Part shown: one piece after another, positions 7,181 through 58,080 of the stretch
Layout: every line of letters starts with the position of its first letter
Numbering within the stretch: position 1 is the stretch's first letter
Assembly: GCA_964016885.1 (NCBI GenBank)
Contig: OZ024740.1
Span: 299,274,001-299,338,000, forward strand
Length of the DNA: 64,000 nucleotides
Direction of reading: 5' to 3'
Origin: Eledone cirrhosa
Taxonomy: Eukaryota
Position numbers and translations under genes: made by a program
The notes under the pieces: generated by a model
The model's input: the letters and a program-made list of their open reading frames with translations, nothing else
Databases searched by the model: none
Told to the model about the DNA's origin: nothing

Positions 7181-7368
7181 TATATATATATATATATATA
7201 TATATATATATATATCCAGTGGGTGTAACTAGGAGTTACTGCAGGTTCACCCGGGTGAGCACTCGATGTTTAGGTTCACTTGTGTGATGATGTGTAGAGC
7301 TATACAGAGTGTAAAATATAGAAAGGATAAAAAGGACGATTGATTATTCCTTCATTGCATTTATTGAT

Positions 7369-7455
7369 AGGTGACGCGCGTTTCGCCACTGATCAGCTCA
7401 AGGTTCGATCTATATCGATCCTACCCGACTCAATAATCGGCAGCTCGACGGACCC
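7369..7455 (-). ncRNA. Degenerate hammerhead with extended stem II
   Basis: GGGT-CCGTCGA-GCTGC...(about 50 nt)...GTGGC-GAAA-CGCGCG-TC-ACCT followed by AATAAA. Confidence 0.6.
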
Positions 7456-9599
7456 TCTTAAAAGGCTATAAGAAAGTGAAATACATGCTATGTGGTAAAG
7501 TCAGAGTTTCAAGAGTTTGACAAAATGAGTTGTTTTGATTGGTGGGAAGGATCAAGGCGATGTACTGGCCTGTAGTGTATTTGGGGGTGGGTATGGTGGT
7601 GAGATGTTGGTGACGGTCGGTGGATGAGGTGGGCTGTGGTGTGGTGGTGGTGGGTTGGCCTTGGCGTGTAGAGTATGTGGGGGTGGATGTGATGATATGG
7701 TGGTGGTTATGGTTATTTAGTGGGATGGGCTGTGGTATGAGGTTAGTTGATTGTCAGTAGACGGGTTGGCGAGTGGGTGGGTGTGTGGCAGTGGTGCCGT
7801 TGTCTATGGTAGCGGCGTTTGTGGTGGTGTGGTGGATGTATTGGTGGCGTCAAGGTCCTTACATAGATACATAGTTAGACGCTCTTCATCTGACAGATAC
7901 CTTGTATATACGTATACGCACACACATATATGTATATATGTGCACATATATTGTTGTATAAACACACACAACACAAAACACACACGCACATCCTTGCCCA
8001 CACATATCGACACACGCTCATACACAGCCATATGTATATGTACACACATGTATGTGCATGCGCGCATGCGGACACGAATATGGAGAGTGGGGGAGTATCG
8101 GTGGGGGTGGCGAACGACAGAGATGGGGGGGGGGAAGGTGAGAGGCAATGTAGAAGGTGTTTTACATATATACATACACATACATACATATGGGTATGGG
8201 CACATGGACTCACACTCATGTATGCAAAATATACACATACACACTCACACACACATATACTCACACATATATATATATATACACACACATGTACAGACAA
8301 CACACACACATACACGCACATATACACATACGTGCACATATATGAGCTCACCTACACATACAGTCAGATTCACCCATATACATATATGTAGACGTACACA
8401 TACACGCACGTACATACGCATACAAATATACACACACATACACATACGCATACACGTACATATATATATATATATACAGATATATATATACACACACATA
8501 GATATATGTATACACATGTGTTCACATACACACACACACACACATACATATAAGTATACGTACACGCACGCACACTTAAACGCCCGTATGTGTAAAAATA
8601 CTTACACACAGACACGCACACTATTGTTGGTTGGGGAGTGGAGGTATGTGTTGTCCGTGTTGATGAAGTATGGAGTTGTGTTTTGTGGTGGTGGTGGTGG
8701 AGTTGTGAGGGACAAAAATATATATACCGGATCGAATACCGGTTAAAAGGTGACATAGGGAACGCGGGGGAGAAGCGTTTATGGACGTACGGCGATGTGT
8801 ATTGTGGACATGGTGATGGTGGTGGTGCTGTGGTGATATGTTCGACAAGATGATTACATGATCAGAAGTTACGGTGTGTTATAGGGTAAGCAGACGGGGG
8901 GTGGGGGATATATAATACAGTCGATCAGGGAGTGAAGGATGATATGTGTTGATGATGTTAATGATAATGATTGTTGAAGTATGTGGATGTATCTAGTGGT
9001 GGCGGTGGTTGTCTGTGCGTGCGACAGTACAATTACAGGGTCGAATTTAGCGTGGGGTTGTAGGTTAGGGTAGTAAGAGGGAACATGGGGGGATGAGGTT
9101 GTAGGCGTGTATGGTAGGCATATGACGATGTGTGATGTGGTGGTGGTGGCGATGGTGTGATATGATCGACATTGTATTTACAAGATCCCTTGTCATTGCG
9201 GATTGCAAGGTAGAACGTATCATAGGATACCGATCTAATACGATGTTGCAACGATGAGATGTGTATGTTGATGTGAATTTTGGTGGTGGTGATGGTGATG
9301 TGTGCGGTATGATATAAAAATGCGGGCTTAGAAATGGTTACATGGAGTACAATACAATAAGTTCATTGAGGTGGGTGGTGTTGAGACGGGGTATAGGTGG
9401 TTATTAATATGGTGTCATGGTTAGTGTGATTTTTGGTGTGGGTTATGTATGCGGCATGATATACAAAATACGGGCTTGAAGTTAGATTATAATTAAAGTT
9501 CGTTGAGATGGGCGATGGTGATACGGGGCAGCTGTGGTTATTATTATGGTGGGTCATGGTTAGTGCGTGGTCCTCCCGCGAAAGTTTGTGCAGAAAAGG

Positions 9600-9980
9600 T
9601 GTGCATCCTAGTGTGTCTGCAATTGACAATTATGCCGACCTATAGTTTATGGCGGAATCAAGTTTAATTATTTCCGCCGCCTCAGCTACGCATAATCTGC
9701 AGTGGTTTCTGTCACTGGGGATATATGCCACGCGTCTTTTTACTGACCACGAAATCCGGGGTTCAATATTCCTCTCCTTGAGGTCCCAGATCAGATCGGC
9801 CAGTTTTGTTTGGGGTCGTTTCGATCTATGTTTGAAGGAGCTTCTGTGATTTTACCAGCGCTCCTTAAACGTAGTGGATGTCGCACTTATATATGAGTAC
9901 TCCTTATTGCCGGCTGTGACATCGCACCGGTAAACAATATTCTTAACGAGGCACTCCCCTTTTAGTGGGCATTCGTCTCG
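9600..9980 (-). pseudogene. GIY-YIG endonuclease relic of a PLE (not in the ORF track because of stops)
   Basis: Manual translation; CNC...CPL.G.CL...IVY motif followed by Y.S.T...FK.R..NH..SF; in-frame TAA. Confidence 0.85.
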
Positions 9981-10619
9981 TTTTTTGCAGTTGCATTTGG
10001 GTGTAACCGGTGCGGTGCAACGGTGGCGGTTTGTGTCGTGCGGTGTTGGTGTGTGTGTTGGTGTGTTGTGTTGTGTGTGTGGTTTCGTTCAGGGTTGTGG
10101 TGGTGGTTTGTTGAGGGGAAACCATGTGTTTTTGTATTTTTGCCCTATTATTGTGTGCTATTGTGTGGCCTAGGTTTGGTGCTGTGGAGAAAGAGAATTT
10201 TACGGTGTGTTTATTGAAGAGCGTGTGGTATTTGTGTGTGTGTGGAAAAGATTGTTCGAGAGCCCTGAAAAAGGTTCCCGGTATGTTAGTGGCGACGTGT
10301 ATAGAATGGGGGGGGGGGGGGGTTATACCACGTGACAGGTCTACTTCGGTTTATGCGTTGTTTAGTGAGTTTGTGTGTGTTTTGGTCAGGCGTATGTGTC
10401 AGATAGGTTCCAGGTGATCTATTGGCGTTATGTCCCTTGTCTCTATTGGTACGCAAACGTGTGCGATGGTCGGAGTTGTTATTAGGGCTGGAGAGTATGG
10501 CTTTATCTCCTAGACAGTTATGTGTGGTGCTGTCTGCGCTGCCGGCTAGGGGGCGTCTAAGGTTATTGTGTGTCCTATGTGTGGAGGTTTCTTCTAAGTC
10601 ATAGCAGGACCCTTAGAAA

Positions 10620-56599: not shown

Positions 56600-56897
56600 C
56601 GCTGAGAGGTTATATTTAATTTGTTGGGTTACAACAAGCAACATATTTTTATAACTGATATAAAGCACTCAACAAATTATTGGAGAAAATAAGAAAATAT
56701 ACAATATATTAACAAATGGAAACTATATTTATAAAACCATATTTATTTCATTTTACATATTTCAAGGGCCACCAGAGCTAACTTTGGTGCGCTTTCATCA
56801 GATAAAATAAATATAGGTTAGTTTTATAAATAAATATTGACATACCCTTAAAAAATGCAACCATTTTCGTTGGAATCTCCTGGAGATTCCAAACAGA
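56600..56897 (-). mobile_element. PLE family C-like fragment, HHR 56744-56809 (cleavage triplet mutated)
   Basis: TATTTTAT-CTGATGA-AAGCGCACCA...TGGTGGCCCTT-GAAA-TATGTA-AA-ATGAAATA. Confidence 0.75.
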
Positions 56898-56928
56898 ATA
56901 TATATATATATATATATATATATATATA

Positions 56929-57700
56929 TATTCATTAGTTAAGCAAAACAAGACCACAAATTTCACAAGGAAGACATTATTAAAAGATTGTTAGCATATT
57001 TAGTTTGATGCTAGGAATGTAGAGAATAATAATAATAATAATATTAATAATAATAATGCCTGTTTACAATTGTTTCGCTACTCCGTATAATATTTCTGGA
57101 TTAGATGACTATGTATCATAATTGATCTGGTTCAGTTGAAAATAATTAACATATTTAAAAAAACAGAGTGGCTCATCGGAACTCAAAGGAATATAAATTA
57201 AAATAATGTTACATAATATAATGTTCCATATATTAGTTTTTACTATGGTGCCTTTTTTTTCATCAGCTGTCAGCCATAATCAAGCAGTACTCATCTGTCG
57301 AGGCTGCATTGTGTGAGATCTGCCTATGGGTAACAAGATGGCTGCCAAAGGGCATATTTACCTTACTAATTAGAGGGCAATTGTAAACGGGCATTGTTAT
57401 TATTAATATTATTATTATTCTTATTCTCTACATTCCTTGCATCAAACTAAATATGCTGACAATCTTTTAATAATCTCTTCATTGTTAAATTTGTGGTCTT
57501 GTTTTGCTTAACTAACGAATATTTCCAGCTCTGCGCACCTAACCTCTGCATGAACCCAGCCACCTAGCTGCTTTCTACTGCATATTGCACGTTGAGCACA
57601 TGCCTTTACGCTTTGGCTTCTAACTAACTCACCAATCTTTCCTCTCATATCTCCTCTACTATCTCAATCTCTCTTTTTAAGATTGGTTACTCTTGAACTG
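56929..57700. mobile_element. Fold-back PLE fragment with extended-loop-II HHR 57062-57182 (-)
   Basis: Arms 56929-57072 and 57378-57522; GTT-CCGATGA-GCCACTCTG...CGGAGTAGC-GAAA-CAATTG-TA-AAC; tail hairpin at 57528-57597. Confidence 0.8.
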
Positions 57701-57744
57701 TGTGTATATATATATATATATATATATATATATATATATATATA

Positions 57745-58080
57745 TATCACAGAAAAAGAGAATCAGTGTTGCGACGAAAGGAATTTATTTGACATATTAC
57801 AAACGTTTCTCGGGCGATCAGCTCGAGGCACGATCGGAAAATGTGCTTCGTAGAATCGAGACATATCTGACGACCGTGTTGATTTCAGAGTCAGGTATGA
57901 TCTCCACATCGATCGTGCCTCGAGCTGATCGCCCGAGAAACATTTGTAATATATCAAATAAATTCCTTTCGTCGCAACACTGATTCTCTTTTTTCTGTGA
58001 TATACTCTGTTCTACGAGGGCATTGAGGAGTGCTTATGCGGCCCACCGCATACGGACGCTTTAAGCATTCACCAACAATT
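57745..58080. mobile_element. Fold-back PLE fragment with extended-stem-II HHR 57860-57955 (+)
   Basis: Arms 57745-57836 and 57910-58002; GACATAT-CTGACGA...GAAA-CATTTG-TA-ATAT(A/G)TC. Confidence 0.8.

Follow-up and report, generated by a model that had tools for sequence, protein, structure and literature searches.

The window analysed here is a 64,000-nt stretch of the Eledone cirrhosa genome (GenBank assembly GCA_964016885.1, contig OZ024740.1, positions 299,274,001 to 299,338,000 of the forward strand). It holds insertions of Penelope-like elements (PLEs) next to (TA)n runs, and near the ends of many of these is a small bulged hairpin, RCTC-stem-YY-GAGY. PLEs are close relatives of telomerase. 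An earlier sequence-only reading of the window had pointed out the hairpin and quoted nine copies; all nine (9/9) proved identical letter by letter, at the positions and on the strands given. Several copies belong to head-to-head insertions, in which two inverted arms are joined. We call an arm long when it runs past the hairpin (hairpin 1; fuller copies have a second, hairpin 2) and ends in a tail, and short when it stops just before it.

Family F1 has a long (tailed) end on the plus strand, with hairpin 1 at 12080..12099 and, upstream of it, a minimal hammerhead core and stem II at 11976..12016, both found by pattern scan. Its full leader, with second hairpin and ATG, is seen in loci L031 and L071-L100. 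An F1 head-to-head insertion covers both strands of 20947..21389 (junction mapping and arm classification). The long arm, on the minus strand, has its hairpin at 21010-21029 and its hammerhead at 21094-21135; the short arm, on the plus strand (hammerhead 21291-21332), ends 7 nt before hairpin 1. An F1 subfamily adds a minus-strand hairpin 1 at 41659..41678, with a hammerhead at 41746-41785 and a short partner arm whose hammerhead lies at 41936-41975 on the plus strand. For F6, hairpin 1 is in a minus-strand long arm at 12216..12255, and the short partner arm ends at 12326 on the plus strand, 6 nt before hairpin 1. The F6 head-to-head insertion at 42896..43192 keeps only the 3' half of hairpin 1 in its minus-strand long arm, with the short arm on the plus strand. 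The long end of F7, on the minus strand, has hairpin 1 at 7261..7310 (pattern scan). Upstream of it is a broken Hydra-type linker and endonuclease remnant found by tblastn (9636..10357, minus), and 3' untranslated sequence common to the two suggests that they are probably one element.

Family E forms two head-to-head insertions, at 46200..46391 (short arm minus; long arm plus, with hairpin 1 at 46319-46342) and at 50683..50862 (long arm minus, hairpin 50732-50755; short arm plus). Further E hairpins came from the pattern scan at 45685..45708 (plus) and 24786..24809 (minus), and an E-type copy lies at 23968-23991 (minus). The F4 hairpin (40670..40703, minus) has a hammerhead at 40772-40865, and no open reading frame (ORF) or second hairpin was found for it. 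F2 (13302..13335, plus) is cut short inside its tail and follows a hammerhead-like core at 13211-13242. F3 (15282..15311, minus; pattern scan) is a single copy in the DNA examined. Weaker copies had been listed at four further places. The motif is indeed present at three of them, of which the first two are minus-strand copies: 43410-43433, in the minus-strand long arm of a head-to-head insertion (43356..43728) whose plus-strand short arm ends 7 nt before the hairpin; 46767..46789, a weak single copy with a 2-bp upper stem; and 57528-57597, a long-looped hairpin in the plus-strand long arm of the head-to-head insertion 56930..57704. The fourth, at 58004-58031 in the plus-strand long arm of 57746..58079, is degenerate, and the short arm of that insertion ends 3 nt before it.

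A scan of the window for RCTC-stem-YY-GAGY with at least 3 bp in the stem gave 17 matches, against 1.5 ± 1.2 (maximum 6) in 100 block-wise dinucleotide shuffles. The 17 include two alternative pairings around one family E hairpin and two matches more than 200 nt from a TA run. The 3.0-Gb genome was sampled as 99 evenly spaced 10-kb stretches. Here, 38 of the 56 matches were followed by a (TA)4 run at a distance of 10-100 nt, compared with a background of 9.6%. Four decoy stems reached 1/18, 8/45, 5/36 and 5/41, and altered bulges 2/32 (purine), 5/68 (1 nt) and 5/64 (3 nt). The shuffles and the stem and bulge controls rule out a chance or low-complexity artefact. The motif is genuine and is linked to the ends of elements. 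Scores were 7/13 for a TA bulge and 21/92 for unbulged matches; those unbulged matches that lie near (TA)4 runs are probably in part TA-bulged copies seen in a slipped register. An Rfam scan of the window gave 320 matches, of which the best 150 were all below the gathering score and were nearly all microRNA models on simple repeats.

The carrier families had been taken to be unrelated. Instead, all five window families linked to an ORF (F1, E, F6, F7 and the 57528 family) are PLEs of the Hydra clade. A relative of the 12079 copy (F1) runs on into an ORF with RIRWH and KSDKT, and a relative of the 57528 family (L310) sits 0.6 kb after a Hydra endonuclease. For the other six window families (F2, F3, F4 and those at 43409, 46766 and 58003), no adjoining ORF was found at the loci examined. 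The Hydra clade is defined by an RWK motif, DKT, a CxCx5C linker, loss of CCHH, hammerheads and (TA)n targets (PMC8557442). We compared six families of the source genome with this description: F1, E, F6 and F7 from the window and two recovered with a distant homolog. All six (6/6) have DKT instead of DKG and an N-terminal RxRW[KR], an RWK-type motif. The CxCx5C linker is present in 4/4 complete ORFs; the F6 and F7 pieces stop before its position. By eye, four ORFs end in a GIY-YIG endonuclease without CCHH and with CxxC and CxH near the end. Pfam did not match GIY-YIG in the three Hydra ORFs scanned, so the call rests on the motifs. The hammerhead motif and (TA)n insertion are also found. In a tree, the nine DKT proteins included group together with support of 100/100, separate from five rows that we take to be probably Neptune- or Poseidon-type. 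The Hydra proteins of hairpin families are 25-68% identical to each other.

The source genome also holds dozens of near-identical open Hydra ORFs of 710-785 aa from at least four families, which suggests recent activity. The hammerhead cores vary. That of family E locus L149, UUGAGAA, is a U3-A8 variant, a type known from Schistosoma (PMC4209133); the F2 core is CCGAUGA and the F7 core is degenerate.

The sequence-only reading had treated the hairpin as a 3'-tail element. In tandem and full-length copies it is a 5'-leader element present twice. The leader runs in the order hammerhead, TA site 1, hairpin 1, spacer, TA site 2, hairpin 2, ATG. All six own-genome leaders (6/6) have two hairpins between hammerhead and ATG, with the ATG about 15-85 nt after hairpin 2. 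Because both hairpins lie upstream of the first ATG they are noncoding, and a protein-coding constraint on them is ruled out. The optional tail is the stretch between TA sites 1 and 2, and a 3' end would carry hairpin 1 only when copying started at site 2. The hairpin seen in a tail is thus not the one that adjoins that junction. Tail length and hairpin spacing agree within 2 nt in five families (91/92, 97/99, 104/102, 80/78 and 69/67 nt). A second RCTC past the long end of read-through copies was predicted beforehand for three families and was present in two, F7 and F6. F7 gave 12 matches in three places. Two go on through hairpin 2 into a Hydra ORF; the others make up a duplicated 38-nt array. 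F6 gave 101 matches. Among 25 loci fetched, 22 carry on past hairpin 2 in the direction of the ATG, two consist of tandem tails and one stops once hairpin 2 is complete.

Both families also have tandem repeats. The F6 tail unit is present as three head-to-tail repeats that restart about 8 nt before hairpin 1 (L271/L272, G000:C2:7.2156 Mb), and a 38-nt F7 unit across site 2 is repeated seven times (L242-L251, G000:C4:189.13 Mb). These units could reflect repeated re-priming, as in telomerase, or plain slippage.

Junctions with (TA)n from the window and the 99 stretches were mapped on seven natural reference leaders. The 96 match ends yielded 67 resolved junctions, and 56 of these fall 0-12 nt ahead of a hairpin (hairpin 1 in 20 cases, hairpin 2 in 36). 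The offset is 6 nt for 24 junctions and 8 nt for 14. A set of 13 further families, known from tailed copies only, was held out, and 102 of their junctions were mapped. Seventy-five fall at the reference's own long end (27 of these are F4, nearly all from the query for that end). Of the 27 non-terminal junctions, 23 are within 0-12 nt before a hairpin, compared with 32 of 247 TA sites; the other four are at 13, 13, 15 and -47 nt. The hairpins might instead control translation, splicing or packaging of the leader, the ends being set only by TA microhomology with the target. Hairpin 2 is suitably close to the ATG, and TA is present at both sites. However, the zone that takes 56 of the 67 junctions contains only 34 of the 160 TA sites (16 of the 62 TAT sites), and the offset is nearly fixed, which makes control of the leader a very unlikely explanation.

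Pairing was examined in 27 hairpins, one per family and copy, 24 from the source genome and three foreign. An anchored script was used, with a permutation test that ignores relatedness and with 5' halves that were partly hand-picked. The outer pair is A-T in 14 hairpins and G-C in 13, with no mismatch, which confirms the compensatory A-T/G-C swaps reported earlier. The first upper pair is T-A in 13, C-G in 12 and otherwise in two (25/27 Watson-Crick), and the second is Watson-Crick in 17/27. Further paired swaps occur among subfamily variants of F6 and F1. The inner part spans 8-65 nt, and TA lies at most 10 nt upstream in 25/27. RCT follows GAGY in 22/27, extending the consensus. The bulge is not always made of pyrimidines, as had been stated; it is TT in 12, TC in seven, TA in seven and CT in one. 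Together with the nearly fixed end offsets, the covariation supports the suggestion that the hairpin is a shared cis element tied to the place where the protein acts.

Two other readings bear on these pairs. Hairpin 2 almost always has G-C and C-G at its two variable pairs, so descent accounts for some of the covariation, as would be expected if the hairpins were passive remnants of an old duplication of the leader in a Hydra ancestor, with no present function. Yet loops and spacers are unrelated between families, the pairs are kept across elements whose proteins have diverged as far as noted above, and the same holds across samples; a relic is extremely improbable. The motif could also act on DNA, with the GIY-YIG endonuclease recognizing a single-stranded or extruded intermediate and resolving a longer copy at TA sites. 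GAGY-RCTC is near-palindromic and the offsets fit this too. The tail has been suggested to arise by endonuclease-mediated resolution (PMC8557442), and the Drosophila Penelope endonuclease needed the tail for recognition, as reported in PMC11167929. The same paper, however, maps tail ends to reverse-transcription starts. Loops that vary from 8 to 65 nt while the stems covary suit a single strand, and the G-T pairs in sense-strand stems point weakly the same way. We regard action on DNA as quite unlikely.

Hydra proteins are common in public assemblies, with 1,196 matches among 8,000 scored. They were not found in viral contigs nor in a first scan of genome contigs. The foreign loci comprised seven from metagenomes and 18 in records titled as bacterial genomes; 23 of the 25 were read and 15 were scanned by script. 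The Hydra retroelements inside the bacterial records (L351-L368) probably come from animal host contigs binned with symbionts. Leader or tail sequence was available in 11 foreign loci, and at least one hairpin, with compensatory changes, was present in 10 of them (L363 by eye). In four (L338, L352, L357 and L360) a pair of hairpins precedes the ATG. The ends of L352 and L357 fall about 8 nt short of hairpin 2, and L356 combines a long with a short arm. All 14 foreign hairpins have a Watson-Crick first upper pair; one lower pair is broken once. The CTC/GAG base, which had been described as kept throughout, is CAC/GTG in two of these 14, a lower-stem change from T-A to A-T. By eye, the motif is clear in three of six Hydra consensus sequences in the available supplement of PMC8557442. 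Hydra-2_Amil and Hydra-2_Ajap have one hairpin each and Hydra-1_Ajap has two before the ATG; the hairpin is degenerate in Hydra-1_Crog, and Hydra-1_Amil and Hydra-1_Obim are ambiguous.

The arms of head-to-head insertions follow a simple rule. Among 69 units, 57 are long+short, one is long+long and none is short+short, with 11 having an unclassified arm. The optional extension is therefore at only one end of the insertion in 57 of the 58 classified units. In unselected DNA, all classified units (18/18) are long+short and four are unclassified. A one-sided PLE tail was already known (PMC8557442, PMC3846280). The new finding here is that Hydra elements have a separate hairpin for either end.

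From the leader sequences and the end positions we predict, with moderate confidence, that the hairpin is a binding site for the element's protein, which begins reverse transcription a short way 5' of it, at UA about 6-8 nt upstream. Loading of the reverse transcriptase is favoured over loading of the endonuclease. A read-through transcript would carry the leader internally, and the element's protein would bind one of its hairpins. The endonuclease would cut (TA)n DNA, and the freed (TA)n 3' end would pair with the UA site and prime internal reverse transcription. The hairpin in use would lie 3' of the start and stay uncopied. Priming at site 1 would give the short end, and priming at site 2 the tail carrying hairpin 1. 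Each end of a single target cut would use its own site, probably via a protein dimer, a step we are less sure of, and head-to-head joining of the two cDNAs would follow. More tentatively, one leader RNA may load a dimer of the reverse transcriptase-endonuclease, with one subunit per hairpin, each priming one end of a double-strand cut in (TA)n; as a complete scheme this is possible but falls short of probable.

Work on the Poseidon element PAc gives the closest biochemical parallel. Its reverse transcriptase starts inside the RNA at two sites that match the tail ends (PMC11167929). It needs RNA to +172 with starts at +111-118, that is, about 55 nt 3' of the start. Both strands are extended, hammerhead cutting is dispensable, initiation occurs on uncut RNA and a dimer is predicted (PMC11167929). 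These results bear on a further alternative, in which the hairpin would be a signal for processing or termination of the RNA: a nuclease of the host or of the element would cut 6-8 nt before it, and the new 3' end would then be the site of ordinary priming. Such a signal would account for the same offsets and covariation. It does not easily explain one long and one short arm per insertion, and internal initiation on uncut RNA in the Poseidon assay argues against it; we consider it unlikely.

Several observations weigh against initiation at the hairpins. End positions cannot tell internal priming from RNA cutting at the same places. Eleven of the 67 junctions are outside the zone, 29 of the 96 match ends gave no resolved junction, and family E alone supplies 32 of the 67. 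The second-hairpin test gave 0 matches for F4, and the foreign leader L344 has no motif. Pairing probabilities predicted for whole leaders range from 0.0 to 1.0, and values for the lower stem include 0.02 in F7 (hairpins 1 and 2 alike), 0.12 in F6 hairpin 1 and 0.17 in F1 hairpin 2; TA-bulged copies favour the slipped, unbulged register in predicted folds. Because predicted leader pairing is often weak, the bulged form may need protein. The wobbles, 5 G-T versus 2 A-C/C-A, leave the choice between RNA and DNA undecided. Both arms span the same RNA stretch upstream of site 1 in 28 of 49 units, a sample biased by F6 queries. Such arms need either strand displacement or two RNAs, and a one-RNA model requires strand displacement. 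Finally, three non-Hydra types without the motif also give long+short units (8/11 in a crude test), so the two-site rule does not need this hairpin.

The elements match the published Hydra clade in DKT, the RWK-type motif and CxCx5C, in a single ORF with C-terminal endonuclease, and in the hammerhead in a pseudo-LTR (long terminal repeat), (TA)n targets, one-sided tail and inverted 5'-truncated arm (PMC8557442). They differ in tail length, which is 69-104 nt in five families and outside the 30-40 bp given in that paper. The available main text of PMC8557442 has no 'hairpin', and its two mentions of 'stem' concern hammerheads; 'hairpin' was likewise not found in the available text of PMC4209133 or of the preprint 10.64898/2026.07.22.740005. 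No prior description was found in searches of the openly accessible PLE literature. The clade and the one-sided tail are known, but a duplicated cis signal in fixed relation to both ends was not found in print. As proposed here for Hydra, PAc has two internal starts downstream of the hammerhead that define the tail, requires RNA 3' of the start, extends both strands and is predicted to form a dimer (PMC11167929). In PAc, however, the starts are in an AC-rich stem-loop inside the ORF and the binding motif is left as a region of about 150 nt with no defined conserved motif in the text available, whereas in Hydra the proposed signal is a covarying hairpin that occurs twice in an untranslated leader, once for each start site.

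Other systems offer partial likenesses. Template boundary elements of telomerase and DRT10 lie 5' of the template and stop copying (PMC12632851); the Hydra hairpin lies 3' of the start, is apparently not template and is present twice. A second likeness is L1 twin priming, in which two cDNAs are primed from two target ends and become joined as an inversion, the second primer landing at variable places. In Hydra both starts are fixed and the arms often overlap (28/49). Structured RNAs that recruit reverse transcriptases include hepatitis B epsilon, the 3' stem-loops of long and short interspersed elements (LINEs and SINEs) and the R2 3' untranslated region, and in these and in the boundary elements, as proposed here, a structured RNA beside the template recruits or positions the enzyme.

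A short, duplicated, covarying hairpin at a fixed distance from both ends makes the choice of start site directly testable with few mutants. It gives a rule for annotating the ends of Hydra elements and, if the prediction holds, would explain the long-noted one-sided tail. If the dimer with twin priming is also correct, the one-sided tail, the tail length and the head-to-head arms of PLE insertions would be explained together, and a portable 20-nt signal would set the start of a telomerase-related enzyme. The hairpin could also find use as a tag for loading the template in tools for (TA)n-targeted insertion.

Other Penelope groups account for family A and for the 23880, 63090 and 56170 families, whose own or nearest related ORFs have no Hydra motifs; the tails of family A and of 23880/63090 lack the bulged motif, as had been observed. 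At 20 GIY-YIG loci from about 4-5 families, many of them short of the element end, no hairpin was seen by eye within 700 nt past the stop, and the bulged form was not found in the three non-Hydra leaders examined. A motif common to all Penelope clades is thus not supported. Family A (window 60957-61863, with a GIY-YIG match at 60963-61460, and 5756-7215; also L345-L350) likewise has two ends, separated by about 60 nt, and its long end is followed by a small hairpin of another kind. In two Neptune-type leaders, L114 (just before the ORF start, minus strand) and L120 (250-760), a single long stem starts about 6-9 nt after the short end, and the long end lies in its loop. L114 has ACTC after the short end and an unbulged stem with a CTC/GAG base. 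This stem, seen at one locus each, is possibly the Neptune clade's version of the signal.

Two further features of the window lie outside these families. A 352-aa open frame at 47725-48783 (minus) has a zf-RVT match below the Pfam cut-off and probably represents the end of a non-LTR retrotransposon. A repeat of about 190 nt, probably a SINE, has at least 10 copies and is found at 16339-16524, 19154-19353, 28223-28683, 38110-38231, 44682-45075, 54765-55332 and 59964-60142.

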